A DNA stretch of 64,000 nt from Gloeobacterales cyanobacterium. Lineage in GTDB: Bacteria > Cyanobacteriota > Cyanobacteriia > Gloeobacterales > PMM-0068. Under the pieces are notes generated by a model. That model saw only the letters and a program-made list of their open reading frames with translations. It did no database searches and was not told the DNA's origin. The DNA lies in NCBI GenBank assembly GCA_038245785.1, contig JBBRSB010000008.1:32001-96000 (forward strand), given 5' to 3'. Of this stretch, positions 4,630 to 49,880 are shown in pieces; positions within the stretch are counted from its first letter, which is position 1; each line of letters begins with the position of its first letter. Position numbers and translations under genes: made by a program.

Positions 4630-4661
4630 CTCACAAGTTCTTCAAATTGTTGTTCTACTAT
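4630..4661 (+). promoter_or_regulatory. Shared promoter motif, copy 1 (towards pyk)
   Basis: CTCACAAGTTCTTCA-N11-TACTAT. Confidence 0.7.
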
Positions 4662-5049
4662 AGGGCATGTAAAAAACAGGAAATACATCTTATAAAAATA
4701 TTACAATTTATCGATTCTTAACTTTTTGGATAATCTTCTCTTAACCTTTAACCTTTTCACTTAGGAATTCTATCTTCTCTACAGAGAAAAGTTTATTGTT
4801 ACAATTCATGCGCTTTCTAGCTATACAGCAATCGCTTAGGAAGTTACGATCTAAGCTACTGCTAAAGATAGATTGATTTCATATTTTTACATACTAGGAT
4901 GAGGGGCGGACTTTTAAGACAGGGCTAATCTTATAGCTAAACCTACGACAGAACTGCCCCCTAAAAAAGCACCACTTCCTCAGTCGGTTGGTCAACAATC
5001 ATCGACGGTTGTATTGACTGATTTTGAACAGATCTTTCGAGAGGCATTT

Positions 5050-6576
5050 ATGTCAACTCCTACCGTAGAAAACAAGCAAGAAAACCTCTGCGATTATTCC
5101 CAGATGGATCTCTCAGATCCCCAGATCCTGCTAAACACCCTACAACAGTTGCGCCAGTTAGTTGTTCAAGAGGGAGACGAAATTTTTGATCAGTGGCAAT
5201 CACACATCCAGCGACAAGCATTTCTCAAGAGCGGTCTGAATCTTTCCTACTATTTGGCATTGCGGCGACACGATTTGCGCCCGCTCCAAATGGCTTTAAC
5301 TCCTTGGGGATTATCTTCTCTAGGGCGACTCGAAGCCCGTGTCTTGCCCAATCTCGATGCCGTCATTGCCACGCTGCAATCCGTGTCTCAGACCGATGCG
5401 GATTCGAGAGTTAGCCGTCCTTCAATCGAGGCATTCTTTGAAGGAGATCATTTACTGGAGCAACATACAAAAGATCTGTTTGGCAAGCGCTTGAGCAATC
5501 GTCGGGTCAGAATCATGGTCACCTTGCCAACAGAGGCGGCGAGTGATTATGAGTTCGTGCGGAATCTGATCCAGAGAGGAACGGATTGTGCCCGCATTAA
5601 TTGCGCCCATGATTCGGTTGCCGAGTGGTCAGTCATGGTTGATCATATCCATCAGGCAGAAGCTGAAACGGGAATTTCCTGCAAAATTCTGATGGATCTC
5701 GGTGGACCGAAACCGCGCATCGGCATAGTAATTGCGCCAGATTCTAAACAACTCATCTTTCGGGGCGACTCGCTCCTACTTACCCGTGACCTGCCGACAA
5801 CCAATGACTCTGACAGTTTCCAGGCAAATTGCACATTGCCTGAAGTGCTGGATCAGCTTCAAGTCAACACTAGAGTTTGGATTGATGATGGTCATATTGG
5901 TGCGTATGTTGAGTCGATCAGCGATAGAGGGGTATTGCTACGCATCACCGATGCCGCTTTGAAAGGGAGTAAACTTCGCCCTGACAAAGGACTCAACTTC
6001 CCCGATACCCATCTCAAGCTCTGTCCGCTCACCGATAAAGATTACCAAGACCTCGATTTTGTCGCGACCCATGCCGATATTGTGGGCTACTCTTTTGTTC
6101 AAGAAGCTGCAGATATTGAACTATTGCAGCGGGAGTTATCGGCTCGATGTTCACAAGTCCCAGCAATCGTGGCCAAGATCGAAACTCTGCAAGCGGTGCG
6201 CCATCTTCCAGAATTGATTGTGCAAGCGGCGGGCCAGCAGCCCTTTGGCATCATGATTGCGCGAGGCGATCTGGCCGTGGAGATTGGCTACCAACGACTT
6301 GCCGAAATCCAGGAAGAGATTCTCTGGCTGTGTGAGGCGGCTCATGTACCCGTAATCTGGGCAACTCAAGTATTAGAAACGCTCGTAAAGAAGGGAATTC
6401 CTTCCCGCGCTGAAATGACGGATGCTGCCATGTCGGAACGGGCAGAGTGCGTCATGCTCAATAAGGGTCCGTTTGTTGCGGAAGCCATCACGATCTTAGA
6501 CGACGTTTTGACGCGCATGCAGGAGCATCAGATGAAGAAAACTCCTCAATTACGTGCGCTACATGCTTGGAGATAG
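5050..6576 (+). CDS. pyk: Pyruvate kinase (variant with N-terminal extension, no C-terminal regulatory domain)
   Basis: ARINCAHD, MDLGGPK, KIET, MIARGDLAVE, ATQVLE, CVMLNKG. Confidence 0.9.
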   Translation: MSTPTVENKQENLCDYSQMDLSDPQILLNTLQQLRQLVVQEGDEIFDQWQSHIQRQAFLKSGLNLSYYLALRRHDLRPLQMALTPWGLSSLGRLEARVLPNLDAVIATLQSVSQTDADSRVSRPSIEAFFEGDHLLEQHTKDLFGKRLSNRRVRIMVTLPTEAASDYEFVRNLIQRGTDCARINCAHDSVAEWSVMVDHIHQAEAETGISCKILMDLGGPKPRIGIVIAPDSKQLIFRGDSLLLTRDLPTTNDSDSFQANCTLPEVLDQLQVNTRVWIDDGHIGAYVESISDRGVLLRITDAALKGSKLRPDKGLNFPDTHLKLCPLTDKDYQDLDFVATHADIVGYSFVQEAADIELLQRELSARCSQVPAIVAKIETLQAVRHLPELIVQAAGQQPFGIMIARGDLAVEIGYQRLAEIQEEILWLCEAAHVPVIWATQVLETLVKKGIPSRAEMTDAAMSERAECVMLNKGPFVAEAITILDDVLTRMQEHQMKKTPQLRALHAWR

Positions 6577-6587
6577 ATCTTGGAACG

Positions 6588-6989
6588 CTATGGGAACAAG
6601 TCCAAACGGATCCAGAGTTGTCGCGCTACACGTTGAGTCCGACTGTTCATTTCTAAACAGATGGTTGTTACTCTTCCAATTGGTGTTGTACCTGCAAGCC
6701 AGCCGGATTCCGTATTTGTCTGAAAATAGTCACTTCATTCATCGGCTCTAGGGTTGAACAAACGGATTTCAGTTTGAGTTTCAGAATCATTCCCCGTGAG
6801 CTATGTGCCTTTGCGGAGGTTACAAGAGCGACAGGCGAGGGCTAGATTCGATTCAGCATCAGCCTCACCTCGGCTGATTGGGATAATATGCTCTACTTCA
6901 AAGGGAAAATTGAAGACCAGTTCAGGCGCATGGCAATATTCACAGTGATGAGCAGCACGATCGGCAATCCGAGTGTAAAGCGGATTCAT
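6588..6989 (-). pseudogene. HNH endonuclease with two nonsense codons
   Basis: CEYC..EVEHIIP..NLALACRSCN; frame continues past TAG 6801-6803 and TGA 6735-6737 as RLFNPR...GTTPIGRVT...LFP*. Confidence 0.8.
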
Positions 6990-7348
6990 GGATTCAGTTG
7001 TTGCACTAAGGCGGCGGATCGGGCTGTCGCGGCTTTCAATTCAGCTTCAACCAGGCTATCCAACTCTGTTTGTTGCTCTGAAGGCAGGGTTTCGCCTCGA
7101 TCTCGTGTGGCTCGCCAGAGGTCCATGAGTTCTGATAATCGCTTTTGCTGCACAGCACTAAAGAACCAGTCAGCACGGAAGCTTTGAATCACCATGAGCG
7201 TATCAAATTCATCACTGTCTAACTGAGCAGCTAGAGCGTCCAACGCTTCACCCGCAGTTTTGCCAAGCGATTTCTTATCTCCAGCAATCGCTTGATAAAT
7301 CCGTTCTCCATTTGCATCCGAAGTGGGTAAAATCGCAACCGTAGTCAT
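6986..7348 (-). CDS. Hypothetical partner (putative antitoxin) of the HNH gene
   Basis: ATGA overlap with HNH; QQKRLSELM...EQQTELDSLVEAE. Confidence 0.65.
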   Translation of the reverse strand: MTTVAILPTSDANGERIYQAIAGDKKSLGKTAGEALDALAAQLDSDEFDTLMVIQSFRADWFFSAVQQKRLSELMDLWRATRDRGETLPSEQQTELDSLVEAELKAATARSAALVQQLNP

Positions 7349-7446
7349 AAGTTCATGTACGCCTTTTGCTTCGCCATTATTATAGTTGACTCAATCTTAC
7401 CAGACCCTGTGCAGACCTCCTCCTCGCCAGTGAAGTTCAGGTTCTT

Positions 7447-8529
7447 CTATTGCCGATAGCGATAGTAGGCAGCACAGGCTCCCTCTGAAGAAACCATCGG
7501 GGCCCCCAAGGGATTCTCCGGTGTGCAGCGGTTACCAAAGGCAGGACATTCATAAGGTTTTTTTATCCCTTGCAACACAAGTCCACTGATACATTCTGAT
7601 TCCTGCTGATTAGGCTCTACCTCGATTTCAAAGCGATGTTCTGCATCGAATTCAGCATATTTTTCACGCAACCCTAACCCACTTGCAGAAATCTCTCCAA
7701 TCCCACGCCACTGACGAGGGACTATTTCAAATACTTCACGCATTAGTTGTTGCGCTGTTTCATTTCCCAGGCGACGGACAGAACGGGCATATTGATTCTC
7801 TACTTGCGCTATTCCTGACTCTAGTTGCTTGATGCACAGATATATTCCTTGCAGAATATCTAAGGGTTCAAAACCTGTAACGACAATAGGAACTTGATAT
7901 TTTTGGACAATCGGTTCGTACTCGCTATATCCCATTACGGCACAGACATGTCCAGCCGCTAAAAATCCTTGAATACAGTTATTAGGGGAAGAAAGAATCG
8001 CTTCTATGGCAGGAGGAACAAGGACATGAGATACCAGCATCGAGAAGTTTTTAAGATCCTGCTGGTGAGCTTGATAAACAGTCATCGCCGTGGCAGGAGC
8101 GGTAGTCTCAAATCCGACGGCAAAGAAGACCACCTGCTTGTCAGGATGAGCTTGGGCAATTTTGAGGGCATCCAGCGGTGAGTACACTATACGAATATCA
8201 CCACCCCTGGCTTTAACAGTAAGCAGGTCTTTCTCTGAACCCGGTACCCGCAACATGTCCCCAAAAGAGCAGAGGATAATTTCCGCTCGTTCAGCAAGAG
8301 CGATCGCCTTATCAATCAATTCAATAGAGGTGACACAGACGGGGCAACCAGGACCATGAATGAGATTGACTTCTTTGGGTAACAACTCATCCAAGCCAAA
8401 TTTCACAATTGAATGCGTCTGTCCGCCACAGACTTCCATGATCTTCCAGGACTGAGTTGTAATCTGGGCGATAGCCTGGGCATATTGTTGCGCTGATTGA
8501 GCATCACGGTATTCATCTACAAATTTCAT
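7447..8529 (-). CDS. hypD: Hydrogenase maturation protein HypD
   Basis: [29 protein letters not shown]. Confidence 0.97.
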
Positions 8530-8544
8530 AGCGTTGTCCGTCTA

Positions 8545-9621
8545 TTAGCCCGCAAGATCACCCACATAGATGCCCAAGGCTTGGGCCGTTTGAATAAGAA
8601 AATTATGGGGGTCCACGGGCAGTGGGCTCTGCTCGATTACTTCTTTTAGCGGCACATCCACAACCTGTCCATTTTGCCAAGCGACCATGCGGTCATATTT
8701 CTCTTGAGCAATAAGGTCTACTGCCGCTTTGCCAAAGGTTGCTGCCACCAAACGGTCTAAAGCTGAGGGGATGCCTCCCCTTTGCGTGTGGCCCAAGACA
8801 GTTACCCGGACTTCCGGCTTAGTCTCTAAACCACTCTGCTTAATCTGGTCAGCAATATAGTGTCCAATTCCGTCTAGATGAAGTCTTTCCTTCTCTTTTT
8901 CGAGTAGTATTCCTGGATTTGGTTTCACCCCTTCTGCGACCACAATCATCGCAAATTCCCGTCCCCATTTATCCCTCAGCTCTGCGATGTGACGATACAC
9001 CTGGTCCAGCGAATAAGGGATTTCAGGGATCAAAATGGCATCTGCGCCCCCGGCAATCCCCGCGTGCAGGGCGAGATACCCAGCTTGTCGGCCCATGACC
9101 TCCACAATCATTACCCGGTCATGACTGGCTGCCGTGTAGGTCAAGCGAAAGAGGGAATCGGTAACGGTATTGACAGCGGTATCAAACCCCAGAGAGCGCT
9201 CAGTAAGCGCTACATCATTATCAATTGTCTTCGGTACAGCTACCAGATTCCAGCCCCCTGCTTGAGCAAGCTGGCGAAAAATTTTTAAACTGCCATCGCC
9301 ACCAATCGCAATCAAAGCATCTAGTTCCAAAGCCCGGTAGCCTTCTGTGACCGCTTCATCGAAAGGGTCTCCGCCGCTGACCGTTCCCAGAAAAGTTCCA
9401 CCCATACTGAGCAAGGGGTCTATGCCATGAATATCCATACCGTGCAGCGTCAAGGCAGCGGTTTTGGGAGGACGGGCACGTAGCCCTTGGGTGGCATGGG
9501 AAATACCGATTACATCCCAGTCGTAGGTTAGCTTGGCGTGATAGACCACCGCCCGAATCACGCCATTCAATCCAGGACAATCTCCTCCACTGGTAAGAAT
9601 GCCAATTCGTTTATGTCCCAT
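8545..9621 (-). CDS. pfkA: 6-phosphofructokinase (PfkA family)
   Basis: TSGGDCPGLN, GGDGS, PKTIDND, EVMGR, LGHTQRGG. Confidence 0.95.
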   Translation of the reverse strand: MGHKRIGILTSGGDCPGLNGVIRAVVYHAKLTYDWDVIGISHATQGLRARPPKTAALTLHGMDIHGIDPLLSMGGTFLGTVSGGDPFDEAVTEGYRALELDALIAIGGDGSLKIFRQLAQAGGWNLVAVPKTIDNDVALTERSLGFDTAVNTVTDSLFRLTYTAASHDRVMIVEVMGRQAGYLALHAGIAGGADAILIPEIPYSLDQVYRHIAELRDKWGREFAMIVVAEGVKPNPGILLEKEKERLHLDGIGHYIADQIKQSGLETKPEVRVTVLGHTQRGGIPSALDRLVAATFGKAAVDLIAQEKYDRMVAWQNGQVVDVPLKEVIEQSPLPVDPHNFLIQTAQALGIYVGDLAG

Positions 9622-9647
9622 CGAATCTCCCCACACAGGTTAGTTAT

Positions 9648-10643
9648 TTAAACAGGTCTGTAGCTCTGGAGCGCACGCGTATACTGGGCCCGCTCGAAGG
9701 CACTCGGGTCTGGGCAATTTTTCTGACTCATACTCCCCTGCAACTGCCGAACGGAGCTATATTCATGCTCCTCCATCCAAGCTTGCATTTCCTCTTCAAT
9801 CACCCGAATCTGACTAATGCCATGCCTGAGAAGCACCGAACAAAGCATGGTGACTTGAGCCCCGGCCATGAGCATCTTCAGGGCATCGGTAGCTTTATGA
9901 ATGCCGCTGGTAGCCGCTAAATCAGTCTGAAGGTGGCCATAGAGAATGGCAATCCAACGCAAAGGTAAACGCATGGAATGGGGCGTACTCAAAAGTACAT
10001 TCGGCTCGACTTCCAGGGTTTCAAGGTTGATATCCGGCTGATAAAAACGATTGAACAGCACCAGAGCATTGGCGCCTGCTGCATCCAGACGCTTAGCCAT
10101 GTGGGCCATATTGCTGAAATATGGACTGAGTTTGACGGCGACAGGAATCGTCACCACCGATTTGACCGCTTTCAGGATATCCAGATAGGTCTGCTCAACT
10201 CCTTCCCCGGTCAATTCCATATCCGTAGGGACATAGTAGATATTCAGTTCCAGGGCATCGGCCCCGGCTTGCTCAATTTGGCGGGCATAGTCTGTCCAAC
10301 CGCCGACGGTCGAACCATTGAGACTGGCGATGATTGGAATGTCTACCGATGCTTTCGCTCTCTGAATATGTTCTAAATACTCTTCCGGTCCAACATGGAA
10401 TAGGGCAGGTTCTGGAAAATAGGTCAGCGATTCCGCAAAACTTTCTGTTCCATAGGTCAAATGATGGTGTAGTTCATAGCGTTCAAGACGCAACTGCTCT
10501 TCAAAGAGCGAATGCATGACCACGGCTGCTGCCCCTGCTGCTTCCATCCGCTTGATATTGTCGATTTCTTCTGAAAGTGGAGAAGCCGAGGGCACAAGGG
10601 GCGTACGCAACGTTAAGCCCATATAGGTCGTTGTTAGATTCAT
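9648..10643 (-). CDS. Dihydroorotate dehydrogenase-like flavoprotein
   Basis: [33 protein letters not shown]; directly downstream of nifJ. Confidence 0.88.
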
Positions 10644-13600
10644 TCGGGCTGTCCCCCTTCTGTAGGAACTTGAACACCACGGGCCGCTAGATATTCGTAC
10701 AAATGCCAGTGGTCCGCCACATCTTGCTGGGCTTCTTTGAGTAACTGTTTAGCCACGGCTGGACTGCTCTTGGTCAGCATTTTGAAACGGTTTTCTAGGT
10801 ATAGATATTTTTCAAGAGGGATTTTCGGGGAGCGCGAGTCTAGCTGTAAAGGATTTTCTCCTCGCTCGGCTCGGCCCGGATGAAAACGATAGAGCAACCA
10901 TTGACCTGAATTGACGGCGGCTTTCTGGTTTTGCATAGCCGTAGCCATGTTGATGCCGTGAGCAATGCAGTGGGAGTAGGCAATGATCAGCGATGGGCCT
11001 TCATAGGCTTCCGCCTCCAAAAAGACTTTGAGGGTATGTTCATCCCGTGCTCCCATGGCAACACTGGCCACATAGACATTGCCATAGGTCATCGCCATCA
11101 GGCCCAAGTCCTTTTTGGGCGCAGGCTTACCGCCCGCAGCGAATTTAGCAACTGCAGCCCGAGGGGTTGCTTTGGACATTTGCCCACCCGTGTTGGAATA
11201 GACTTCCGTATCGAGGACAAGAACATTGACGTTGCGACCACTGGACAGCACATGGTCTAAACCCCCAAAGCCAATGTCATAGGCCCAGCCATCCCCACCA
11301 ATGATCCAAACACTTTTCTTGACCAGCAGGTCGGCCAGGCTTAGGAGCTGTTTGGCTTCTTCGGAATCTAGGGTTTGTAATCTCTGCTTAAGGACCGCTA
11401 CCCGCTCCCGTTGCTCGTAGATATCTGCTTCATCTTTTTGCTCTGCAGACACAATGGCTTGAACCAGATCATCACCCAACGCCCCAGACAATTTCTTCAG
11501 CAGCTCCACCGCGAATTCTTTCTGCTTATCAATTGACAGACGGAAACCCAGCCCAAATTCGGCATTGTCTTCAAATAAGGAATTGGACCAGGCTGGTCCC
11601 CGTCCTTCCGCATTCTTCGTCCAGGGTGTAGTAGGTAAGCTGCCTCCATAAATAGAAGAACAGCCCGTGGCATTGGCCACCACCATCCGGTCGCCAAACA
11701 GTTGGGAAGCCAGTTTGATATAAGGCGTTTCTCCACAGCCCGCACAGGCCCCAGAAAATTCAAACAGCGGTTCTTGCATCTGCTGCTGGCGAATCAGCGT
11801 TGTATTTAAGTCACGACGGTCCGGGTTGGGCACGCTCAAAAAGAAGTCCCAATTTTCCCGTTCCGGCTCTCGTAGGGGAGCTTGCGCCTGCATATTAATC
11901 GCTTTCAGCGAAGGAATAGATTTATTTTTCGCCGGACAGACATCCACACAAATTCCACAGCCCGTGCAGTCTTCCGCCGCCACTTGAATCGTGAACTTCA
12001 GTCCCTGCCAGTCATGGTCGTGGGCCTCTGCCGATTTAAAGGTTGCAGGTGCTCCCTCTAAGACCCCAGGCTCATAGACCTTACCCCGAATCACACTGTG
12101 GGGGCAGACCATCACGCACTTACCGCACTGGATACAAACATCTGGATCCCAGACCGGAATTTCCTGGGCAATATTGCGTTTTTCCCATTGGGCCGTTCCC
12201 GTGGGAAAGGTTCCATCCACAGGTAAGGCGCTGACAGGCAGGGTATCCCCCTGGCCGGAAATCATTTTGCCTAGAACGTCCCGCACAAATGCAGGGGCAT
12301 GATCGGACACCGGCGCATGTAGAGACGCGAAATTTCGCGTCTCTACGGTGCGTTCCGGGATTTCTACGGCGAATAGACGTTCCAACGTCTGGTCCACCGC
12401 ATTCAAATTCATCTGAACGATTTCATCGCCTTTCTTGCCATAGGTCTTTTGGATGGACTGTTTAATTTCGGAAATCGCTCCGTCTCTAGGCAAAATGCCC
12501 GCAAGGGCAAAGAAACAAACCTGCATCACGGTGTTGATCCGTCCGCCCATCCCACTTTCACGGGCCACTTTATGGGCATCAATTACATAGAATTTCAGAT
12601 GCTTGCTAACCAGCTGCTCTTGCATCGTTTGCGGCAGATGATTCCAGATTTCATCCGGTCCGTAGGCCGTATCTAGTAAAAAAGTCCCTCCTTCTACAAG
12701 GGGTTGCAGCATATCAAAGCGCTCAAGGAAGACAGACTGGTGACAACCTACAAAATTGGCTCGACTCACCAGATAGGTGGAATGAATCGGCTCAGGTCCG
12801 AACCGCAGATGGGAAATCGTGACCGAACCTGATTTCTTGGAATCGTAGACAAAATAGCCCTGGGCATAGTTATTCGTCTGTTCGCCAATAATTTTGATTG
12901 AATTCTTATTAGCGCCTACCGTGCCATCAGAACCAAGACCATAGAACACACAGCGGACTACATGATCCGCTTCCGTCGAAAATTCTGGGTCGTAGGGCAG
13001 GCTGGTATGACTGACATCATCGTTAATGCCAATCGTGAAATGATTCTTAGGATATTCCTGCGCAAGATTATCAAAAACCCCCTTGATCATGGCTGGGGTA
13101 AATTCTTTGGAGGATAGACCATAGCGCCCACCAACGATCCCCCCTTGATCCCCCCTTAGCAAGGGGGGAAAAGTCCTTGAAGCCTTATAGTTCTCTCTCT
13201 CTAGGGGGGTCTCATAAATCGCCATCGCACAGTCTAAATAAAGCGGTTCCCCGATACTGCCAGGCTCTTTGGTGCGGTCAAGAATAGCAATTGCCTTAGT
13301 CGTCTCAGGCAAAGCTGCGACAAACCGCTCTCTGTCAAAAGGTCGATATAGCCGTACTTTGATCAGGCCGACCTTTTTACCCCTTTGGTTGAGAAAGTCC
13401 ACGGTTTCCTGGACGGCTTCACAGCCAGAACCCATGAGCACGATCACCCGTTCTGCATCAGGTGCTCCGTAATATTCAAACAGTCGATAGTGTCGCCCTG
13501 TTAGCTGCCCAAACTGATCCATAGCCCTTTGGGTAATCTCTGGGCAGGCAGCGTAGAAAGGGTTCACCGTTTCCCGCGCCTGGAAGAATACATCTGGATT

Positions 13601-14281
13601 TTGGGATGTGCCCCGCAACACAGGGTGATCTGGGGAGAGAGCCCGGGCACGATGTTCCAGAATCCGCTGCGGATCGATCATCGCCCGCAGGTCATCGTCG
13701 GATAGCCGTTCGATTTTGGCAATCTCATGGGAGGTGCGGAAGCCATCAAAGAAATGCAAGAACGGAATCCGAGACTCCAGCGTGACCACTTGGGCAATCA
13801 GGGCAAAATCTTGAGCTTCCTGCACGGAGGCCGAACAGAGCAGGGCAAAACCTGTCGCACGGGTAGCCATCACATCACTGTGGTCCCCAAAAATAGAAAG
13901 GGCCTGTGTGGCCACTGAACGCGCTGCCACATGAAAGACCGTGGGCGTCAATTCCCCAGCAATCTTGTACATATTGGGAATCATCAACAGCAGTCCCTGC
14001 GATGCTGTGAACGTAGTAGCCAGCGAGCCGGTTTGCAGAGCACCATGCATGACCCCGGCGACACCCCCTTCTGACTGCATCTCTACTACTGAGGGGACGG
14101 TGCCCCAGAGGTTGGGCTTGCCTTCAGCAGCCCAGGCATCCGCCCACTCCCCAATTGGAGTGGATGGAGTAATCGGATAGAGGGCAATTACTTCATTCAA
14201 GCGATAGGTGACAGAGGCCACGGCCTCATCCCCATCCAAAGTCGCAAAAATCCTTTGCTGCAAAATACCTGTGCTCATCAT
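10640..14281 (-). CDS. nifJ: Pyruvate:ferredoxin/flavodoxin oxidoreductase
   Basis: YPITPS, two CxxCxxC ferredoxin motifs, [18 protein letters not shown]. Confidence 0.97.
12319..12346. repeat. Perfect 28-bp palindrome in frame inside nifJ
   Basis: GTAGAGACGCGAAATTTCGCGTCTCTAC, encoding VETRNFASL. Confidence 0.85.
13137..13210. repeat. Short dispersed repeat in frame inside nifJ
   Basis: CCCCCCTTGATCCCCCCTTAGCAAGGGGGG, encoding ...[11 protein letters not shown]. Confidence 0.75.
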
Positions 14282-15195: not shown

Positions 15196-15229
15196 GCCCC
15201 TCTAATCATCAGGTTTCAGATTTTTATTG

Positions 15230-15261
15230 CTCACAAGTTCCTCAAATTTCCTGCCTAATCT
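15230..15261 (+). promoter_or_regulatory. Shared promoter motif, copy 2 (TPR gene-hoxFUYH)
   Basis: CTCACAAGTTCCTCA-N11-TAATCT. Confidence 0.75.
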
Positions 15262-15284: not shown

Positions 15285-16274
15285 ATGGCACATTTATCCT
15301 TTGTAAACGTTCCCGCTATCTTTCGCTATAGCAGTTCAAGCGTAACTCTAGCGAGTATCTTGAGCATCGTTATGCTGGGAGGAACAGCGTCTATGCCAGC
15401 GTGGTCAGCGCCCATTCCTTCACTCGCGGCTATAAGCTCCGTGACTCAAATGAACGCTGAGGATTTCTATAACCGAGGCATTGATGAGATTAAGACAGGA
15501 AAAGTGAAGGAAGCGATTGATGATTTCTCCCAGGTCCTTCTCATCAATCCTAATCATGCCGCAGCGTTTTTCAATCGGGGTTCAGCCTATTCTCAAAATG
15601 GAGATAAGCAGAAAGCACTGGAAGATTTTAATCAGGCCATCCGCCTCAGTCCCTACTCGACGGCTGCCTATGATGGTCGGGCCTATGTGCGCAAGTCCCT
15701 GAAAGACTTCAAGGGCGCCATAGAAGATTACACCCAGATGCTGCAGATCACACCCTTTGATGCCGGGGTCTACTACAAAAGGGGGCTAGTCCACTACAGA
15801 CTAGGAGATCAGCAGAGTGCTCTGGAGAATTTTAAGGAAGCTATCCGTATCCAGCCAAGCTTCATTCAGCAAATTACGGGACATCTAGTCACCGTCGCTA
15901 TTATTCGCACCTCTGAGTTGGGAGATTACGAGGGCGCACTTGAGGACTTCTCCTTTCTCATTCATTTCAATCCCTCTGATGCCCAAGCCTATAGCGGTCG
16001 GGCCATCATACGCGCGGGACTAGGGGATAAGAAAGGGGCTGTGGAAGATTACACTCAAGCCATTCGTTTCAACCCGCTTGGCACAAATGCCTATTTAAAA
16101 CGGGGCCAGATTCTTTCTGAACTAGGAAATAAGCGAGGAGCCTTGAAAGATTTACGCAACGCCGAACGTCTTTTTGTCATAGCCTCCTCTGCAGAAACGG
16201 ATCCTCCCCTTCGAGATTTCTATCAAGAGATGCTGAAAGAAACTCGGAGCCTGCTTAGAAAACTTCAACGCTAG
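15285..16274 (+). CDS. TPR-repeat protein with probable signal peptide
   Basis: Repeated AY..RG......GD...A..DY.QAI...P units; hydrophobic N-terminus ending AWS. Confidence 0.9.
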   Translation: MAHLSFVNVPAIFRYSSSSVTLASILSIVMLGGTASMPAWSAPIPSLAAISSVTQMNAEDFYNRGIDEIKTGKVKEAIDDFSQVLLINPNHAAAFFNRGSAYSQNGDKQKALEDFNQAIRLSPYSTAAYDGRAYVRKSLKDFKGAIEDYTQMLQITPFDAGVYYKRGLVHYRLGDQQSALENFKEAIRIQPSFIQQITGHLVTVAIIRTSELGDYEGALEDFSFLIHFNPSDAQAYSGRAIIRAGLGDKKGAVEDYTQAIRFNPLGTNAYLKRGQILSELGNKRGALKDLRNAERLFVIASSAETDPPLRDFYQEMLKETRSLLRKLQR

Positions 16275-16283
16275 GTTGTCAAC

Positions 16284-17930
16284 ATGGATCTTGCTGAACT
16301 TTTGAACATTGCAGAACAAGAACGTCAGGCTGAAAAGAGCATCCATATTCGTTGTTGTATGGCGGCAGGTTGTCTGTCTTCTAATTCCTTAGCGGTCAAA
16401 CAGCGCCTTGAACAAGCGGTTACAGAAGCTGGTTTAGACAGTAGCGTGCAGGTCACTGGAGTCGGCTGTATGCGTCTATGCTGTCAGGGTCCTCTGGTTC
16501 AAGTTGATGGAGCAGGGGAGCGTGTAGCGACGGAGGACCTTACCCCTCTACAGTGCGAACTGATGACCCAACTCTACGAGAAGGTCACCCCCACCGACGC
16601 CCCTTCGATTGTGGCGGCATTGGAGGGAGGTACGGCCACCGCCCAACAGGGCGACCTTACACACCCATTTTTTACCCGTCAGCTGCCGATTGTGCTGGAA
16701 AATAGCGGCAAGATTGACCCTGAGCGCATCGAATCCTATATAGCCGCCAACGGCTATCAGGCGCTCCAGCGTGTTTTACAAGAAATGACGCCCTCAGAAG
16801 TGGTGAATAGCATTACTCGTAGTGGTCTGCGGGGACGGGGTGGAGCTGGTTATCCGACGGGGCTGAAATGGGCAACCGTAGCCAAGGCGACTAACCCACA
16901 AAAGTATGTCATCTGCAATGCCGATGAGGGCGATCCTGGGGCCTTTATGGACCGCAGCGTTTTAGAGAGTGACCCCCATCGGGTGCTGGAAGGGATGGCG
17001 ATTGCGGCCTATGCCGTGGGCGCGAACCAGGGTTACATTTACGTCCGCGCTGAATATCCTCTGGCCATTAGTCGCTTAGAAACCGCTATCCGGCAGGCCA
17101 AGCAACAGGGGCTTCTGGGCAGTCAAATCTTTGAATCCCCCTTTGACTTTCGAATTGACCTGAGGATGGGGGCAGGTGCTTTTGTCTGCGGAGAAGAAAC
17201 AGCGTTGATGGCTTCTATTGAGGGGAAGCGCGGTTTACCGAGTCCTCGCCCACCCTATCCAGCAGAATCAGGGCTCTGGGGATGTCCAACCCTAATTAAT
17301 AACGTCGAGACCTATGCCAATGTGCCCACGATTCTGCGCAAGGGAGCGGACTGGTTTGCCAGTATCGGGACGGAGAAAAGTAAAGGGACCAAGGTCTTCT
17401 CGCTGACGGGCAAAGTGCGCAATACAGGTCTGGTCGAAGTGCCCATGGGCACAACCCTGCGTCAGATTGTGGAAGAAATGGGAGGCGGGGCCCCGGATGG
17501 CAATGCTGTCAAAGCGGTGCAGACAGGCGGTCCTTCTGGCGGCTGTATCCCCACGGATGCCCTGGATACGCCCGTTGACTACGACTCTCTGCTCCAACTG
17601 GGCTCGATTATGGGTTCCGGTGGCATGATTGTCATGGACCAGAGCAACAACATGGTAGAAGTCGCCCGCTTCTTTATGGAATTCTGCATGGATGAATCTT
17701 GCGGTAAATGCATTCCCTGCCGTGCGGGTACCGTGCTGATGTATCGACTTTTAACCAAAATCCATGAGGGTAAGGCATCTCATGCAGACCTGGAACAGTT
17801 GGAATCGCTCTGCCCGATGGTGAAAGAAACCAGTCTCTGTGGGTTAGGCCAATCTGCCCCAAACCCGGTGCTGAGCACCCTGCGCTATTTCCGGGATGAA
17901 TATCTAGCCTTGATTCAAGACCACCGCTAA
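16284..17930 (+). CDS. hoxF: HoxF (NuoF-like FMN/NAD subunit)
   Basis: [38 protein letters not shown]. Confidence 0.96.
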
Positions 17931-18002
17931 TTCTATGGAGAAAAATCACTATTCCCCTTGCTCAACTGCTCAACAGACGGTCTACCTTGTCTATAGGAAA
18001 CA

Positions 18003-18722
18003 ATGATGGCAGTTAAAACCTTAACCATAGATGACCAAATGGTCAGTGCCCGTGAGGATGAGACCCTTCTAGAAGCGGCACGGGAGGCGGGGATTGATAT
18101 TCCTACTCTCTGCTATCTCGATGGAGTGTCTGCAGTAGGGGCCTGTCGGCTCTGTTTGGTGGAAGTAGCAGGCAGCAGCAGACTCCAGGCAGCCTGTGTC
18201 ACCAAGGTCGCTGAAGGGATGGAAATTCGCACAAATACGGAACGACTACAGCAGTATCGCCGCATGATTGTCGAAATGCTCTTTGCAGAAGGCAATCACA
18301 TCTGCTCCGTCTGTGTTTCTAACGGTCATTGTGAATTACAGGATATGGCTGTCACCGTCGGGATGGACCATGTGGATTTTGAATACTTCAATCCAAGCCG
18401 TCCGATGGACCTTTCCCATGAACACTTTGGCATGGACCACAATCGCTGTATCCTTTGCACACGCTGCATTCGTGTCTGTGATGAACTCGAAGGAGTCCAT
18501 ACCTGGGATATGGCCGGTCGAGGCACCCACGCTCATGTGATTACAGACCTGAATCAGCCCTGGGGAACCTCTCCAACCTGTACTTCCTGCGGCAAATGTG
18601 TAGAAGCCTGTCCCACAGGGTCCATTTTCCACCAGGGATCTAGTGTGGGAGAAATGGTCCATAACCGTTCCCGCATCGAATTTATTGCCACGGCAAAGAA
18701 GAAAAAACAATGGCTCGTCTAA
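18003..18722 (+). CDS. hoxU: HoxU Fe-S subunit
   Basis: [34 protein letters not shown]. Confidence 0.96.
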
Positions 18723-19252
18723 AACTAGCAACGGTATGGCTGGGAGGCTGTTCTGGCTGTCATATGTCCTTTCTGGATCTAGACGAATGGCTCTTTGATT
18801 TAGCGGCCCAAGTGGACCTGGTCTTTAGCCCTTTTGCCGATGTGAAAGAATATCCAGAAAATGTGGATGTGGTTTTAGTCGAAGGTGCCGTTGCCAATGA
18901 AGACAATCTTCACCTGATCCAAACCGTCCGCAAGCGCTCGAAAATCTTGGTTTCCTTCGGCGACTGTGCTGTAACTGGCAATGTCACCGCTTTGCGCAAT
19001 CCCTTAGGCAGTGCGGAACCTGTACTTCAACGCTGTTATGTCGAGGCAGCAGCGCTCCAAGCCCAGATTCCAAATGAGCCTGGCATTGTACCGGTCTTAT
19101 TAGACCGGGTAATCCCTGTGCATCAAGTTATCCCCGTGGACTTTTACCTGCCGGGTTGTCCACCGCCAGCTTCCCGGATTCGAGCGGTCTTAGAGTCCTT
19201 ACTAAAAGGGGAAAAACCTCATTTAGAAGGACAGGATATTAGGTTTGGATAG
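18710..19252 (+). CDS. hoxY: HoxY hydrogenase small subunit
   Basis: [20 protein letters not shown]. Confidence 0.96.
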
Positions 19253-19288
19253 CCCATAGCAAACCTGCAACCCAACAAGGAGACACTT

Positions 19289-20713
19289 ATGTCTCAGCGC
19301 ATTGTGATCGATCCTGTCACCCGCATTGAGGGTCACGCTAAAATCACCATTTACCTTGATGATGCCGGAGCAGTAGCGGATGCCCGTTTTCATGTGACGG
19401 AGTTTCGAGGATTTGAAAAGTTCTGCGAGGGTCGCTCTCTCTGGGAAATGCCAGCTATTACGTCCCGCATCTGTGGCATTTGCCCGGTTAGTCATTTGCT
19501 AGCCTCTGCTAAGGCTGGGGACCGAATTCTCTCCGTCACCATTCCACCCGCCGCTGTCAAACTGCGCCGGATTATGAATCTGGCCCAGATTATCCAATCC
19601 CATTCCCTCAGTTTCTTTCACCTCAGCGCTCCAGATTTACTCTTGGGCCTGGATAGCGATCCTGCTTCCCGCAATGTATTTGGTCTGATCGCCGCTGAGC
19701 CGGAACTGGCACGAGGGGGTATTCGCCTGCGCCAGTTTGGTCAAGAGATTATTGAAATCCTCGGTGGTCGTAAGATTCATCCCTCTTGGGCGGTTCCAGG
19801 GGGGGTACGAGAACCTCTAACCGAAGAGGGACGCTTCCATATTCGGGACCGCATTCCTGAAGCGCAGGCTACCGCCCTAAACGCTATCGACCGATTTAAA
19901 CGCCTACTGGATGACTACCAGCAAGAAACCGAAGTCTTTGGTAACTTCCCCAGTTTATTTATGGGTTTGGTCACTGCCGATGGAGCTTGGGAGCACTATG
20001 ACGGCTATCTCCGCTTTATGGATAGCGAAGGGAACATCCTGGCCGATGGACTCGACCCAACTCGCTTTGAAGAATTCCTTGGGGAAGCGGTCGAACCCTG
20101 GTCCTATCTAAAATTCCCCTACTACAAACCTCTCGGCTATCCAGCAGGTATGTATCGCGTTGGTCCCCTGGCCCGTCTTAATATTTGCACCCATATTGGC
20201 GTGCCCTTGGCAGACCAAGAGTTAAGAGAGTTCCGCGACCGAGGGAAGGGCACGGTCCTTTCTTCCTTTTTCTATCACTACGCGCGACTGATCGAGATTC
20301 TGGGGAGCATTGAACACATTGCTCAACTTCTGGATGACCCCGATATTCTTTCGAGCCATCTCCGTGCCCATGCGCGTATTAATCAGTTAGAAGGAATTGG
20401 CGTCAGTGAAGCGCCCCGTGGCACGCTGTTTCATCACTATCACGTAGATGAAAATGGCTTGATGAAAAAGATAAACCTGATGATTGCCACGGGACAAAAT
20501 AACCTAGCGATGAATCGTATTGTGACCCAGATTGCCCAACATTACATCCACGGTCCCGAAATTCCTGAGGGAATGCTGAATCGTGTTGAAGCGGGTATTC
20601 GTGCCTTCGATCCCTGTCTCAGTTGTTCAACTCATGCCGCAGGTCAGATGCCATTGCACGTTCAATTAATTGCAATGGATGGCAGCTTACTGGATGAGGT
20701 CTGGCGCGATTAA
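19289..20713 (+). CDS. hoxH: HoxH NiFe hydrogenase large subunit
   Basis: [24 protein letters not shown] plus a cleavable C-terminal tail. Confidence 0.97.
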
Positions 20714-22944: not shown

Positions 22945-22952
22945 TCAAGGCC

Positions 22953-30776: not shown

Positions 30777-30845
30777 TTAAGTTAAGGTTTCCGTGAGAGG
30801 AGCGAGTTGTGCTGCTTCTATCTGTCATTCTACAAAATCCTCTCC

Positions 30846-31759: not shown

Positions 31760-31767
31760 GGTAGAAA

Positions 31768-34572: not shown

Positions 34573-34604
34573 TTCACAAGTTCCTCAAAGTGTTTCTCTA
34601 TAAC
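34573..34604 (+). promoter_or_regulatory. Shared promoter motif, copy 4 (P-type ATPase)
   Basis: TTCACAAGTTCCTCA-N11-TATAAC. Confidence 0.7.
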
Positions 34605-45783: not shown

Positions 45784-45809
45784 GCGTTCATTATCCCAAT
45801 TGCTGCTGC

Positions 45810-45841
45810 CTCACAAGTTGCTCATATTTTTCTCCTACCTT
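45810..45841 (+). promoter_or_regulatory. Shared promoter motif, copy 5
   Basis: CTCACAAGTTGCTCA-N11-TACCTT. Confidence 0.7.
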
Positions 45842-45888: not shown

Positions 45889-46131
45889 ATGAACCAACAA
45901 AGAGTCAATGTCTATCTGAATTTGATTCCAGGGTTGCTGGATTATCCAAAAAGGGAAGAATGGGCCATATTGGGGCAGGACAGGTTGATCAAGCAGCCCC
46001 CTCCTGAACCTATTGAGTTTGATGATGTCGAGCAAGGAGAAAATCAGCCCCCACCTGAACCCATTGAATTTGATGATATTGAACAAGGAGACGATCGGCC
46101 TCCTCCTGAACCCGTCGAATTTGAAGAATGA
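45889..46131 (+). CDS. Small protein with ~2.7 copies of a 17-aa acidic repeat
   Basis: QPPPEPIEFDD(V/I)EQG repeats; many differences between the 51-nt units are synonymous. Confidence 0.7.
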   Translation: MNQQRVNVYLNLIPGLLDYPKREEWAILGQDRLIKQPPPEPIEFDDVEQGENQPPPEPIEFDDIEQGDDRPPPEPVEFEE

Positions 46132-46201
46132 TGTTTAGTTTCAGCGCATTCCGCATTTATCCAAATTTGATGATGAGCGATCGCCCTACACAATAGTAAA
46201 T

Positions 46202-47173
46202 ATGCCAATGTCACCAAAACCAACCGTCCTGGTTACGCGCACATTGCCGGATGCCGTCGAGGAGCGATTGGCGAGGGACTACACGCCTCGATTTAACGAT
46301 GCCGATAAGCTTTACCCGACGGAAGAGTTCCTGACCAAAGCACAGGGAGCCGATGCTCTGCTGATCACCATGAATGATCGTCTGCCCGCCGAGGTGATGG
46401 AGCAATTGCCAGAGAGTGTGCAGGCGATCGCCACCTTTTCAGTTGGCTATGACCATATCGACATAGCAGCAGCAAGAAAGCGGGGAATTGTCGTCACGAA
46501 CACGCCGGATGTGCTGACTGATTCAACGGCGGATGTCACTTTGTTGCTGCTACTAGCGGCTTCTCGTCGCGCCCATGAAGGGGAAACTTTAGTACGCCAG
46601 GGACTCTGGTCAGACCCGCGCCCCACAGAATTACTCGGTATTCAATTGACGGGGAAGCGATTGGGTATCCTGGGTATGGGCCGGATTGGGCGGGCTGTCG
46701 CCCAGCGAGCGCGTGCGTTTGGGATGACTGTTCATTATCATAACCATCGCCGACTCCCCCCAGAAACAGAGTTGGGTGCCATTTTCCATGAACAACCCGA
46801 AGACCTGCTAAGGGTCAGTGAGTTCTTTTCGTTTCATTGTCCTGCGACTCCACAAACCGAGAAATTCCTGAATGCCCAACGAATTGCTCTACTTCCAGAT
46901 GGGGCAGTTGTTATCAATGCAGCGCGCGGTTCTCTGATTGTGGATGATGACCTGATTGCGGCATTGCGCTCTGGCAAGATCGCTGCTGCTGGTTTAGATG
47001 TCTACAATGGTGAGCCCTACATCCACCCTGCTTATCAGACACTGCCTAACACATTTCTCCTCCCTCACATCGGCAGTGCAACGGTAGAAACCCGCACTGA
47101 GATGGGATTTATCGCTTTAGATAATCTGGATGCTGTCTTCGCAGGGAAGCAGCCGCCTAACCTGATTCGCTAG
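46202..47173 (+). CDS. D-2-hydroxyacid dehydrogenase (glyoxylate/hydroxypyruvate reductase type)
   Basis: SVGYDHID, GMGRIG, INAARG, GLDV..EP, LPHIGSAT. Confidence 0.92.
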   Translation: MPMSPKPTVLVTRTLPDAVEERLARDYTPRFNDADKLYPTEEFLTKAQGADALLITMNDRLPAEVMEQLPESVQAIATFSVGYDHIDIAAARKRGIVVTNTPDVLTDSTADVTLLLLLAASRRAHEGETLVRQGLWSDPRPTELLGIQLTGKRLGILGMGRIGRAVAQRARAFGMTVHYHNHRRLPPETELGAIFHEQPEDLLRVSEFFSFHCPATPQTEKFLNAQRIALLPDGAVVINAARGSLIVDDDLIAALRSGKIAAAGLDVYNGEPYIHPAYQTLPNTFLLPHIGSATVETRTEMGFIALDNLDAVFAGKQPPNLIR

Positions 47174-47210: not shown

Positions 47211-47873
47211 CTAACGATGGAGATACTGGCCGAACCATAAACTTGCCAGCCGTGCAGCCTCCTCTAGCGTGCCCGGCTCTTCAAAAAGGTGAGTAGCTCC
47301 AGGGACAATGGTGAGTTGTTTGGCGACATGCAGCTGGTCTAAAGCTTCTTGGTTCATCTTGATGATGGGGAGATCATATCCCCCGACAATCAGGAGCGTG
47401 GGAGCCTGGACCCGTGCGAGGGCTGAACCCGCCAGATCAGGTCTTCCTCCCCGCGAGACAATCGCACCAATATCCTTGGGACGTTCTGCAGCGGCGACCA
47501 AAGCGGCACCCGCCCCCGTACTGGCCCCAAAGTAGCCAATCCGGAGATGTTCTGCCTCAGAGTTATGTTTGAGCCAGTCTGTAGCACCCACCAACCGTTC
47601 TGCCAAAAGACCAATATTGAAACGGAGGTGTCTGGTCCATCGCTCCGCAGCCTCTTCGTTTGCGGTAAGCAGATCAATTAACAGAGTGGCTAACCCTGCA
47701 TCAGAGAGCACTTGGGCAACGTAGCGATTGCGGGGACTATGTCGGCTGCTGCCACTGCCATGGGCGAAAAGCACAATTCCCTGAGCTCCTTCGGGCAAGG
47801 TTAGGCTGCCTTCAAGGACAATGTGCCCTGCCAAAACGCGCACTAAGTGTTCTTTTTTCATGGTTGTTGTCAT
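47211..47873 (-). CDS. Dienelactone-hydrolase-like alpha/beta hydrolase
   Basis: FAHGSGSSRHSPRN, GASTG, SRGGRPDLA, HLFEE. Confidence 0.9.
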   Translation of the reverse strand: MTTTMKKEHLVRVLAGHIVLEGSLTLPEGAQGIVLFAHGSGSSRHSPRNRYVAQVLSDAGLATLLIDLLTANEEAAERWTRHLRFNIGLLAERLVGATDWLKHNSEAEHLRIGYFGASTGAGAALVAAAERPKDIGAIVSRGGRPDLAGSALARVQAPTLLIVGGYDLPIIKMNQEALDQLHVAKQLTIVPGATHLFEEPGTLEEAARLASLWFGQYLHR

Positions 47874-47889
47874 GGGGATATCCTCCTTC

Positions 47890-48318
47890 TTAGAAGAGAT
47901 CGTTGATGGACTCAATCTGGGGAGTATGCAGGTCCAGGGTCAGGACCTGATTCACGCCAACAGCCTGCAGCAAATCAGCCACCATTCTGGCTGTAATAGG
48001 CTCACGATGACCATTCCGCTTATCTGCACGGGCATAGCCAAAGTAGGGAATGACCGCCGTAATATGGGCAGCGGCTGCCCGACGACAGGCATCGGCAAGG
48101 GCTAAAAGCTCCATCAAGTGCTCGTCCACAGGCGGAGAAGTTGATTGCACAATGAAGACTTCTTTTCGACGAACTCTCTCCAGAAGACGCACAGAAACTT
48201 CGCTATCAGGAAATCGCTCACAAATACAGGCCCCAAGCTCCACTCCAAGTTCATGAGCAACTTTGGAAGCCAAGTCTGGAGTGGCCGTGCCAGCAAAGAT
48301 AACGAAATCATGCGTCAT
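47890..48318 (-). pseudogene. prs: Ribose-phosphate pyrophosphokinase with a large internal deletion
   Basis: FPDSE, PYFGYARADK and LDLHTPQIE, then directly SINDLF*; PRPP-binding half absent. Confidence 0.8.
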
Positions 48319-48373
48319 CGTGAAATCCCACGGGAGTGTTGTTTTTAGCGGTCTTAATGAACCCTCTGCATGA

Positions 48374-48483
48374 CCCCCCTTAATCCCCCCCACCCTCCGG
48401 GAAGGCTACACCTAGTGGCTAAGGGGGGAAATGGAGATCTGGTTCCCTCCCCTTACCAAAGGGAGGGCTAGGGTGGGGTGGGG
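48374..48483. repeat. Short dispersed C/G-run repeat
   Basis: CCCCCCTTAATCCCCCC...AAGGGGGGA...CCCTCCCCTTACCAAAGGGAGGG. Confidence 0.7.
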
Positions 48484-48505
48484 CAAGACTATTTACAGCT
48501 CAAAC

Positions 48506-49084
48506 TTACTTTTTAGCTAGGGGGATCTTGGCGTACTTGCCCATCAATCTAACGGTGCTCGCTTGAGGCCCCCGCTCACCTTCCTCTTCAACAAAACTGA
48601 CCTCACTACCGATTTCTAGTTCATCAAAAGCGTTGTCGAGGACGCTGTGCTGATGGAAATAAACTTCATAACCATCCAATGTCTCAATGAATCCGTAGCC
48701 CTCGTCTGGGAATAACTTCGCAACGCGTCCCTGGAGTTGTGGAGGTTCGTGTGTTTTGACATCACCCCGTTGGCGGCGAACATAATCCTGTAATTCACGC
48801 TTTGCCGCGTCAAAGGCATCACGGAGGGCTACATAGATATCTTCATGGGCCTGATGTCCTGACGGAGTGCGGTTCACGACTAGTTCCCCACCAGGGACCG
48901 TCAAGTCGATGCGAATGTGATAAAGGTTCCCTTGGTGATGCCGATGAGGAGCCTCGACCGCTACTCGACACCCCATCAATCGGCTATAAAGCTTATTGAG
49001 CTTCTCAGTCTTCTCACGGATTTTTGCTTCAATAGCCACGGACGACGGAACATTACGAAAGGTGATTTGCAAGGGTAATTGCAT
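48506..49084 (-). CDS. HPF/RaiA ribosome-associated protein fused to a cold-shock domain
   Basis: LQITFRN..SS.AIE..IREK...DAFDAA.R.L; GYGFI..EVYFH. Confidence 0.92.
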   Translation of the reverse strand: MQLPLQITFRNVPSSVAIEAKIREKTEKLNKLYSRLMGCRVAVEAPHRHHQGNLYHIRIDLTVPGGELVVNRTPSGHQAHEDIYVALRDAFDAAKRELQDYVRRQRGDVKTHEPPQLQGRVAKLFPDEGYGFIETLDGYEVYFHQHSVLDNAFDELEIGSEVSFVEEEGERGPQASTVRLMGKYAKIPLAKK

Positions 49085-49208
49085 AATCTAGCCTCCCTAA
49101 AACGTTGGGTTGAGGAAAATAGTTTTTGATATCTAAATTGATGAGCTATTTTTCTGTTTTTACTAGACAAAACTTCTAGTTAATTGAGTTTAATTGCGAA
49201 AGGAACCA

Positions 49209-49242
49209 ACAGGAAAGCTAGTTTTCACGCTAGCCTTCCTGT
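49209..49242 (-). terminator. Hairpin downstream of hsp20
   Basis: ACAGGAAAGCTAG / CTAGCCTTCCTGT. Confidence 0.5.
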
Positions 49243-49298
49243 CATGCTAGACTTCCATCTCTTTAGCTATTCCAGGCTTTACCTTAGTAAGTCCAGAA

Positions 49299-49760
49299 TT
49301 AGTGAACACTGACCTTCACGGTTTTGTGCTTCTCTTCCTCCGCCTTCGGTAGGGTGAGGGTAAGAATGCCATCTTTGTATTCAGCATTCACCACGTCATT
49401 CTTAATCCGCGCAGGAAGAGGAATGACCCGCTGGAACCTACCATAGCGGAACTCAGAGTGCACCATGCCTTTTTCTTCCGTCTTGGTTTCAGACTTGCGC
49501 TCACCGCTAATCGAGACCGATTGCTCTGTCACTTCAATATCCAAGTCCTTAGCTTCTAGACCTGGAATCTCCAGCTTAAGATGAATTTCCTCAGGGGTTT
49601 CTTTCATCTCAGCAGAAGGGGTAAATATGAACTTCTCCCCCTCACCCATAGGTCTAAACTGCTCAAACAAGCGGTCCATCTCGTCCCTCAGGCTTTCCAT
49701 TTGCCGACGAGGTTCCCAACGTTCGATTCCTCGGAAGGGTTCCCAACGAGTAATTGCCAT
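49299..49760 (-). CDS. Hsp20 small heat-shock protein
   Basis: EIPG...D..I.V...V.ISGER, EFRYG.F.R.I.LP, A.YKDGIL.L.LPK. Confidence 0.95.
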   Translation of the reverse strand: MAITRWEPFRGIERWEPRRQMESLRDEMDRLFEQFRPMGEGEKFIFTPSAEMKETPEEIHLKLEIPGLEAKDLDIEVTEQSVSISGERKSETKTEEKGMVHSEFRYGRFQRVIPLPARIKNDVVNAEYKDGILTLTLPKAEEEKHKTVKVSVH

Positions 49761-49848
49761 ATGCTTTCTCCTATACGTTCAGTAGAGAGCCATCATCCAG
49801 TTGCCAGGTAATCGTTGAATTTATAGCTGAGGTGGTCCTCTACTTTCG

Positions 49849-49880
49849 AGGTTAGAGAAGGAATATGAGGAACTCGTGAA
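49849..49880 (-). promoter_or_regulatory. Shared promoter motif, copy 6 (hsp20)
   Basis: TTCACGAGTTCCTCA-N11-TAACCT on the minus strand. Confidence 0.75.

Follow-up and report, generated by a model that had tools for sequence, protein, structure and literature searches.

An 18-bp promoter box, found upstream of hydrogenase, fermentation and stress genes in a Gloeobacterales cyanobacterium, is almost certainly a real activator-type element. It was detected in a stretch of 64,000 nt, hereinafter the window (assembly GCA_038245785.1, contig JBBRSB010000008.1, forward-strand positions 32,001 to 96,000), which lies on contig C8 of the source genome, G000 (5.0 Mb, 47.8% GC). Genome comparison makes it very probable that the box is bound by one family of RcaC-like proteins, and nearly as probable that the box and an RcaC-like regulator of the OmpR/PhoB family form a pair, the latter being the binder. 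More tentatively, and with slightly less than even confidence, we propose a direct oxygen-sensing master switch common to many cyanobacteria, from Gloeobacterales to Nostocales, in which a FixL-type haem kinase would act through an RcaC-type relay (Alr2428/Alr2429) on one box serving the genes of hydrogenase, of fermentation by PFOR and PFL and of a dormancy set resembling that of DosR, partly carried on a mobile island.

The regulators published for the bidirectional hydrogenase and for fermentation in cyanobacteria, LexA, cyAbrB, SigE and RpaA, are general factors studied mostly in Synechocystis and Synechococcus. The present analysis names a specific box, regulator and sensor domain, with an apparent orthologue of the regulator in the tractable Nostoc PCC 7120, and may account for the way in which hox, nifJ, ppsA and ptox collapse together, so far without an explanation, in data published for that strain. 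An oxygen-sensing switch, if confirmed, would provide the oxygen sensor that has been missing for the hox and nifJ genes of these cyanobacteria, and the box itself could serve as a compact inducible promoter in work on hydrogen production.

Architecture and distribution of the box

An earlier note on the window, made from the sequence alone, described a 15-bp motif built as a yTCA-N7-yTCA direct repeat with an 11-bp period. The period stands, and the unit is refined here to 7 bp with a 4-bp spacer: the element is a direct repeat of 7+4+7 layout, TTCCTCA-CAAG-TTCCTCA, and 11 nt separate its end from a TAnnnT hexamer. For a set of 80 loci that a public-genome scan provided, the consensus extends to TTCCTCA-CAAG-TTCCTCA-AATT; in 72% of rows the hexamer ends with T, a base that the search pattern did not specify. 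In the window, the original 15-bp pattern has six matches, at the positions and on the strands given in the note, and none in 100 dinucleotide shuffles. The –10-like hexamers likewise read as reported, exactly 11 bp downstream of all six copies, five of them fitting TAnnnT. With up to two mismatches allowed there are nine window matches against a chance mean of 1.55, the three additional ones having no –10 hexamer at 11 nt.

Thirteen exact copies are present in the entire genome, six of them in the window and four on contig C18. A matrix scan of the genome, which the note had suggested, used a matrix built from the 15 motif columns alone, excluding the hexamer; 16 sites rank first, above a clear gap. 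TA is found exactly 11 nt downstream in all 16 (TAnnnT in 15), compared to TAnnnT at that spacing in 3 of the 56 next-ranked matches. The flanks of the 16 sites are unrelated (mean identity 0.26, a single pair sharing downstream DNA), and the box is therefore a promoter element rather than a repeat; random scatter or mobility, which the note had named as grounds for refutation, is further contradicted by only one of 82 site rows lying inside a long open reading frame (ORF). The exceptional pair is a duplicated promoter: over the 60 nt that follow the hexamer, C16:93939 and C18:31197 have 92% in common, and they lead to a YHS-DUF2933 gene and a sigma factor gene, respectively.

The genes following the six window sites were assigned as in the note, and NCBIfam matches agree for all six. 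Box 1 (4628..4645, + strand), with its hexamer TACTAT (4656..4661, +) and a predicted start at about 4667, lies approximately 380 nt upstream of the pyruvate kinase gene pyk (5014..6576, +), which would thus have a long leader; a pyk-like gene also stands 3' of a box in locus L078. Box 2 (15228..15245, +; TAATCT at 15256..15261, +, predicted start about 15267) precedes genes of a TPR protein and hoxF, hoxU, hoxY and hoxH (15285..20713, +). Box 3 (30844..30861, +; TACCTT at 30872..30877, +, predicted start about 30883) precedes hoxW, probably beginning with the ATG at 30945, hypA and an acetate--CoA ligase gene (30945..34572, +); hoxW is preceded by a box also in L134, L141, L143, L144, L148 and L150. 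Box 4 (34571..34588, +) overlaps the stop codon of the ligase gene and is followed by TATAAC (34599..34604, +), without the final T, and by a type II P-type ATPase gene (34669..37329, +). Box 5 (45808..45825, +; TACCTT at 45836..45841, +, predicted start about 45847) leads to genes of an 80-aa Pro/Glu-repeat protein and a D-2-hydroxyacid dehydrogenase (45889..47173, +). On the opposite strand, box 6 (49865..49882, –; TAACCT at 49849..49854, –, predicted start about 49843) precedes a run, probably co-transcribed from it, of hsp20, a hibernation factor/cold-shock fusion, a truncated prs and a dienelactone-hydrolase-like gene (47211..49760, –). Its counterpart in the congener G300 is located before the orthologous genes.

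The public-genome scan yielded at least 121 loci, with 118 cyanobacterial titles (one of them Gloeobacterales) and three of an "uncultured bacterium". Among 251 genomes sampled from the phylum, 36 contain the pattern followed by TA (four matches in the reversed control), as do 93 of 330 sampled from the class (five matches in the control). When five other genomes were searched with the motif only, TA was found at 11 nt in 44 of 50 matches; a further count, 83 of 87 with TA, was set aside because its loci had been picked around sites bearing TA. Single sites in genomes G117 and G028 lie inside ORFs and were treated as chance.

Further targets in G000 are a second hsp20, a group 2 sigma factor, a universal stress protein (USP)-OsmC-phosphoribosyltransferase set, efflux operons and a flavoprotein that we label sulfide:quinone-reductase-like. 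In other cyanobacteria the box precedes USP-hoxEFUYH, hoxW, nifJ-DHOD-like-pfkA, ppsA, pflA-adhE-pfl, PTOX, lon, nitroreductases, hsp20 and USPs. The shared regulon suggested in the note is thus borne out, with fermentation, hydrogenase and stress genes boxed both in G000 and elsewhere. Of the promoters that the note proposed to compare, hox, nifJ and hsp20 are all boxed in other cyanobacteria, although no box was detected at nifJ or hoxE in G000 and G300. Unnamed small families (approximately 80–135 aa; L011, L049, L053, L035 and relatives) recur directly 3' of the box in numerous genomes, with no Pfam match or a weak phosphatase-like one.

The candidate regulator

As the note stated, no candidate regulator is encoded in the window; we find one on contig C18. 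G000 has 12 OmpR-type DNA-binding domains, two of them in a C18 cluster among five further sites. The candidate binder, P0001 (351 aa, C18:22134-23189), is an RcaC-like protein with the domain order REC-wHTH-Hpt; P0002 (620 aa) is a second RcaC-like protein on C18. Encoded near P0001 are the kinase P0003 (REC-PAS-PAS-HisKA-HATPase) and a 122-aa receiver. Beside P0002, CheB and a PAS kinase, CheR is split over two overlapping frames (L002:4236-5542, on C18).

In the first 80 genomes, the best matches to the winged helix of P0001 fall mostly in box-bearing genomes, and six of 20 such regulator loci have the regulator gene divergent from a boxed USP-hoxE promoter; this arrangement is seen in G020, G107, G041, G101, G071, G035, G149 and G059. 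In a test on fresh genomes, all 43 new genomes of the class sample with at least two strict sites were compared to 37 hand-picked genomes of the same families with none, new genomes with exactly one site being left out. A regulator match is present in 42 of 43 versus 6 of 37 genomes at any cut-off from 1e-25 to 3e-27 (area under the curve 0.975), and in 37 versus 3 at the stricter 1e-28; the cut-offs were chosen after the search, and related genomes are not independent. Regulator presence also splits within genera (g162, g155, g154, g167). In five of the six exceptions, allowing two mismatches gives 6, 3, 7, 13 and 3 sites versus 2, 1, 1, 1 and 0 in the reversed control, some of them flanking the regulator gene; five regulator-less genomes give 0, 1, 0, 1 and 6 versus 3, 2, 2, 1 and 4 in the same search.

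A paralogous group has the recognition helix R-A-H instead of R-T-H and resides among variant boxes ending with TTTTCA, around signalling clusters. In a tree of 32 rows this group forms a separate branch (93/92, not starred), and P0001 belongs to a starred group of 16 rows; four rows with the same helix as P0001 (G420, G463, G097, G038) are placed outside the latter. At L195-L199, R-A-H paralogues are ringed by variant boxes of the TTCACAAGTTTTTCA type pointing at receivers and kinases, a sister regulon. An RpaB-like OmpR gene 3' of a box (L084:573-1349) was rejected as the binder, as it forms a long outlying branch in the tree.

On the Acaryochloris plasmid pREB4, of which 100 kb out of 227 kb were covered, a regulator 59% identical to P0001 with the same helix is accompanied by 20 relaxed sites (18 with TAnnnT; no shuffle control), next to hox, hyp, pfkA and hsp20. 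Elsewhere, counterparts of P0001 and P0003 are fused into one protein. Outside Nostocales, the regulator often ends with a GGDEF domain rather than a fused kinase (L184, L225, L229).

The note had placed the motif at the –35 position as an OmpR/PhoB-family activator box, which is supported by the tandem 11-bp period, the fixed distance to –10 and the tracking winged-helix regulator. In PhoB promoters, the distance to –10 matches that of our box. The likeness extends to the 7+4+7 layout at –35 and to the winged helix of the OmpR/PhoB type, while the E. coli repeat is CTGTCAT and here we observe another repeat, no phosphate genes and a multi-step relay. In PMC4415409, the PHO box is described as a pair of 7-nt repeats that stand 4 nt apart and replace the –35 element.

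Sensor, relay and possible signals

The kinase, the single receiver and the REC-wHTH-Hpt regulator are encoded together, as in the RcaE/F/C relay. By sequence, the best solved relatives of the PAS-A domain of P0003 are FixL (E 7e-22) and then DosP; FixL also ranks first for the predicted fold (pLDDT 74). In FixL, haem is liganded by a His residue, and the residue aligned with it is His in all 21 domains compared. Among 120 long (fused) homologues selected on the basis of the regulator portion, this PAS domain occurs in 118, each with the His; at the position of FixL Arg220, 107 of the 118 have Arg and eight have Gln. It is somewhat more probable than the contrary that the haem-PAS domain is the main input. 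PDB entry 10jx, a one-component factor (FG214), was set aside as not representing this kinase.

The following mechanism may be proposed from geometry and family knowledge. Phosphate would pass in four steps, from the His of P0003 to the Asp of the small receiver, then to Hpt and to the N-terminal receiver of P0001; the four residue types are seen in the sequences, and the order is taken from RcaE-F-C. At the –35 position, each of the two TTCCTCA units would be occupied by one winged-helix domain, the pair being arranged head to tail, and the bound activator would recruit sigma-70-type polymerase to TAnnnT 11 nt downstream. Since the kinase carries a FixL-like haem-PAS, the input most likely would be oxygen, another haem ligand or the redox state of haem, with the output on at low oxygen. 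The output would comprise hydrogenase and maturation genes, pyruvate and acetate fermentation, hsp20, USP, the hibernation factor and the group 2 sigma factor.

Each part of this system is of a known kind: a PHO-like box, an RcaC-like relay and a FixL-like PAS. The L-box of RcaC is a 7+4+7 direct repeat starting with TT. The C18 set has the same three parts as RcaE-RcaF-RcaC, with several differences: a FixL-like PAS stands here in place of a bilin GAF, which P0003 lacks; the box is TTCCTCA; the targets are hydrogenase, fermentation and stress genes rather than phycobiliprotein genes; and kinase and regulator are often one polypeptide. According to the part of PMC8256508 available, in type III chromatic acclimation of Fremyella diplosiphon these three proteins are a kinase, a single receiver and a REC-wHTH-Hpt regulator, which when phosphorylated binds a promoter box and activates.

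FixL-FixJ (PDB 8js5, 1dp6, 1y28) and E. coli DosP offer the best sequence and fold match for the sensor PAS, the His aligned with the haem ligand being invariant; at the Arg220 position, most homologues have Arg and G000 has Gln. Unlike the LuxR-type FixJ or the FixK cascade, the output here is of the OmpR type, via a receiver and Hpt, and haem binding here is predicted. The gene content resembles that of the mycobacterial DosR regulon and the Burkholderia lxa locus, in which hsp20, USPs, an Acg-like nitroreductase, a P-type ATPase, phosphoribosyltransferase and a hibernation factor are likewise found, while the regulon described here also covers Hox, PFOR and PFL. DosS and DosT rely on haem-GAF domains, and the site of DosR, a NarL-type protein, is palindromic. 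The known regulators of hox and nifJ, namely LexA, cyAbrB1/2, SigE, RpaA and ChlR, act on the same target operons, and in PMC13421787, PMC11368403 and PMC3091678, as far as available, neither this box nor a haem-PAS relay is connected with any of them. Other regulators of hox are likewise what a 2026 review of cyanobacterial redox signalling names, as far as available. In the literature searched, where subscription papers were thinly covered, we found no description of the box or of its wiring with a haem-PAS relay; no search was aimed at alr2428 itself, and prior work is possible. The literal motif retrieved only an unrelated mouse paper, and the supplements of PMC4183373 and PMC3610870 yielded no promoter sequences.

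The orthologue of P0001 in PCC 7120 appears to be Alr2428. P0174 (BAB74127.1) falls in the cluster of the homologue from Trichormus variabilis ATCC 29413, and we take it to be Alr2428 partly from accession numbering. Its domains stand in the order given for Alr2428 by the supplement of PMC13156569, where, as far as available, Alr2428 and Alr2429 are filed under uncharacterised regulators and both reported as about three-fold up in biofilms together with alr1912. The tag alr2428 is absent from the available text of PMC13421787 and PMC6616624. The alternative candidate all0729 was rejected, being the c-di-GMP kinase CdgKA.

The accessible data of PMC7699953 show that in PCC 7120, 1 h after a shift from 3% CO2 to air-level CO2, ppsA, hox, ptox and nifJ have the four largest falls of Table 2 (–107, –74, –65 and –42, respectively). 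All four are boxed in other cyanobacteria, and the data demonstrate co-regulation of the predicted set, membership being assigned by boxes in other cyanobacteria and the trigger being carbon. Also, hox and nifJ cluster together in a calcium study (PMC4915528, as available). From the accessible portion of 10.1101/2021.12.15.472848, hoxH is lower in PCC 7120 mutants without oxygen-consuming flavodiiron proteins, which is compatible with oxygen control.

Several observations weigh against the proposed switch, at different levels. Concerning the binder, a site was found within the 12 kb fetched at just 9 of the 20 regulator loci; in the first sample, genomes G099, G191, G026 and G189 contain one to three strict sites, but a regulator with this helix was found in none of the four; G177 and G231 have a regulator match and no strict site. 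Concerning the sensor, G000 itself has Gln, not Arg, at the Arg220 position, and the haem-PAS follows the box less closely than the regulator does (28 of 43 versus 15 of 37 genomes, with at most 54 candidates scored per genome), even if in 27 of those 28 genomes it is encoded within about 3.2 kb of the regulator match. In G389 the kinase adjoining the regulator is without a haem-PAS, and in some box-bearing genomes sites flank the regulator gene and no kinase of this type lies close to it, and therefore the input may vary. Concerning the regulon, the nifJ-DHOD-like-pfkA-hypD run of the window (7447..14281, –), part of the island, has a promoter that is boxed in other cyanobacteria, and no box was found in the divergent nifJ/hoxE region at 14281-14620 (up to four mismatches plus TAnnnT) or detected in the same region of G300; the regulon thus differs by lineage. 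Concerning the signal, the collapse in PCC 7120 followed a CO2 step-down in the light with no oxygen shift (PMC7699953), and all0635 (ppsA) is strongly down in heterocysts in the accessible data of PMC6616624.

The most direct data on low oxygen come from Acaryochloris marina MBIC11017, again from the parts of PMC5295598 available to us. Table S3 lists nine box-led first genes after seven days under N2, of which seven fell, one was flat and one rose, and under high oxygen eight of the nine fell; hoxE, the third gene after a site, rose approximately four-fold under N2. The text reports plasmid ATPase genes as slightly up, while the table row for atpD differs. Coverage-based starts lie about 13 and 18 nt downstream of the prediction (AM1_D0214 and D0238), and for D0152 the start is upstream of its site, as run-on from the previous gene. 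The box-led genes thus change jointly, but this is no simple low-oxygen response, and the decrease of ppsA in heterocysts points the same way. The fermentation part of the fermentation/hypoxia regulon envisaged in the note stands by its gene set, and the hypoxia trigger does not follow; that low oxygen specifically turns the box on is, in our estimate, somewhat less probable than the opposite.

The strongest alternative retains the same box and regulator, and takes as the signal a surplus of carbon or reductant (or haem oxidation by reactive oxygen species, or CO/NO), so that the regulon would serve electron overflow (Hox, PFOR, PTOX) and would be on under abundant carbon. We consider it a serious contender with a probability of roughly one third. 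It accounts for PCC 7120 targets being high at 3% CO2 and collapsing within 1 h of the shift to air-level CO2, for the falls in A. marina under both N2 and high oxygen, conditions that are both unlike the control in gas exchange, for the presence of the oxygen-requiring enzyme PTOX among the targets, and for the extra PAS and GAF inputs on fused kinases. On the other hand, most targets are oxygen-sensitive or fermentative (PFOR, PFL/PflA, AdhE, Hox), all 118 homologues keep the haem-ligand His, hoxH falls in the flavodiiron mutants, and the A. marina strain may be without the sensor. In strain S15, a haem-PAS kinase gene and a receiver-kinase gene are located between hypE and ppsA (L183:19599-22968), and neither is present there in MBIC11017 (L184:26008-26202), the two strains constituting a natural deletion pair at this locus.

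It is unlikely that the box is bound by another OmpR-family protein, either P0002 or a more widespread regulator, with P0001 merely riding the same island. The four genomes with boxes and no P0001-type regulator found, the presence of P0002 in the same C18 cluster and the fact that islands carry genes together, so that co-occurrence alone is not binding, are in line with this possibility. Yet the helix of P0002 differs, and P0002 is outside the starred group of 16 rows; in Nostocales the box is scattered over many loci and still tracks the regulator; helix and box vary together between paralogues; and a universal regulator would not vanish with the box within genera.

The note had left room for an alternative sigma element, and the group 2 sigma gene on C18 and its homologue on pREB4, each with an upstream site, as well as the rigid spacing, could suggest that the 15-mer is the –35 element of such a factor. 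We regard this as very improbable, as the element is not a hexamer but an 18-bp tandem repeat with an 11-bp period, TAnnnT is a –10 of the ordinary kind, a box precedes the sigma gene itself, as would fit a target, and the box tracks the response regulator. A CRP/FNR half-site for the C18 CRP-like protein, or a dispersed mobile repeat, is already largely refuted, since, despite the TCACA within the motif and the CRP-like genes on C18 and pREB4, no conserved inverted half-site lies upstream and the inverted repeat with a 6-bp spacer is absent, and since the flanks are unrelated, Rfam gives no match at any site and the sites point into one functional class.

Neighbouring genes in the window

No kaiA was found in the genome (98% completeness), and its absence would fit an early-branching lineage. 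In the window, hoxE is split from hoxF by box 2 and the TPR gene (14281-15230), the two being adjacent in G300, and a G/C-rich inverted-repeat-like stretch is located upstream of hoxE. The hydrogenase cluster is further split by approximately 8 kb between hoxH and hoxW (21147-28940), containing a toxin-antitoxin run (HicAB, Gp49/HTH_37, BrnTA, PIN) and a KAP NTPase. An archaeal-type methionine adenosyltransferase is encoded inside the island (44578-45783), with no box found for it. The truncated prs (47890-48393, –) has no match to its remaining residues nearby, and corresponds to residues 1-137 of the 311-aa orthologue from G300.

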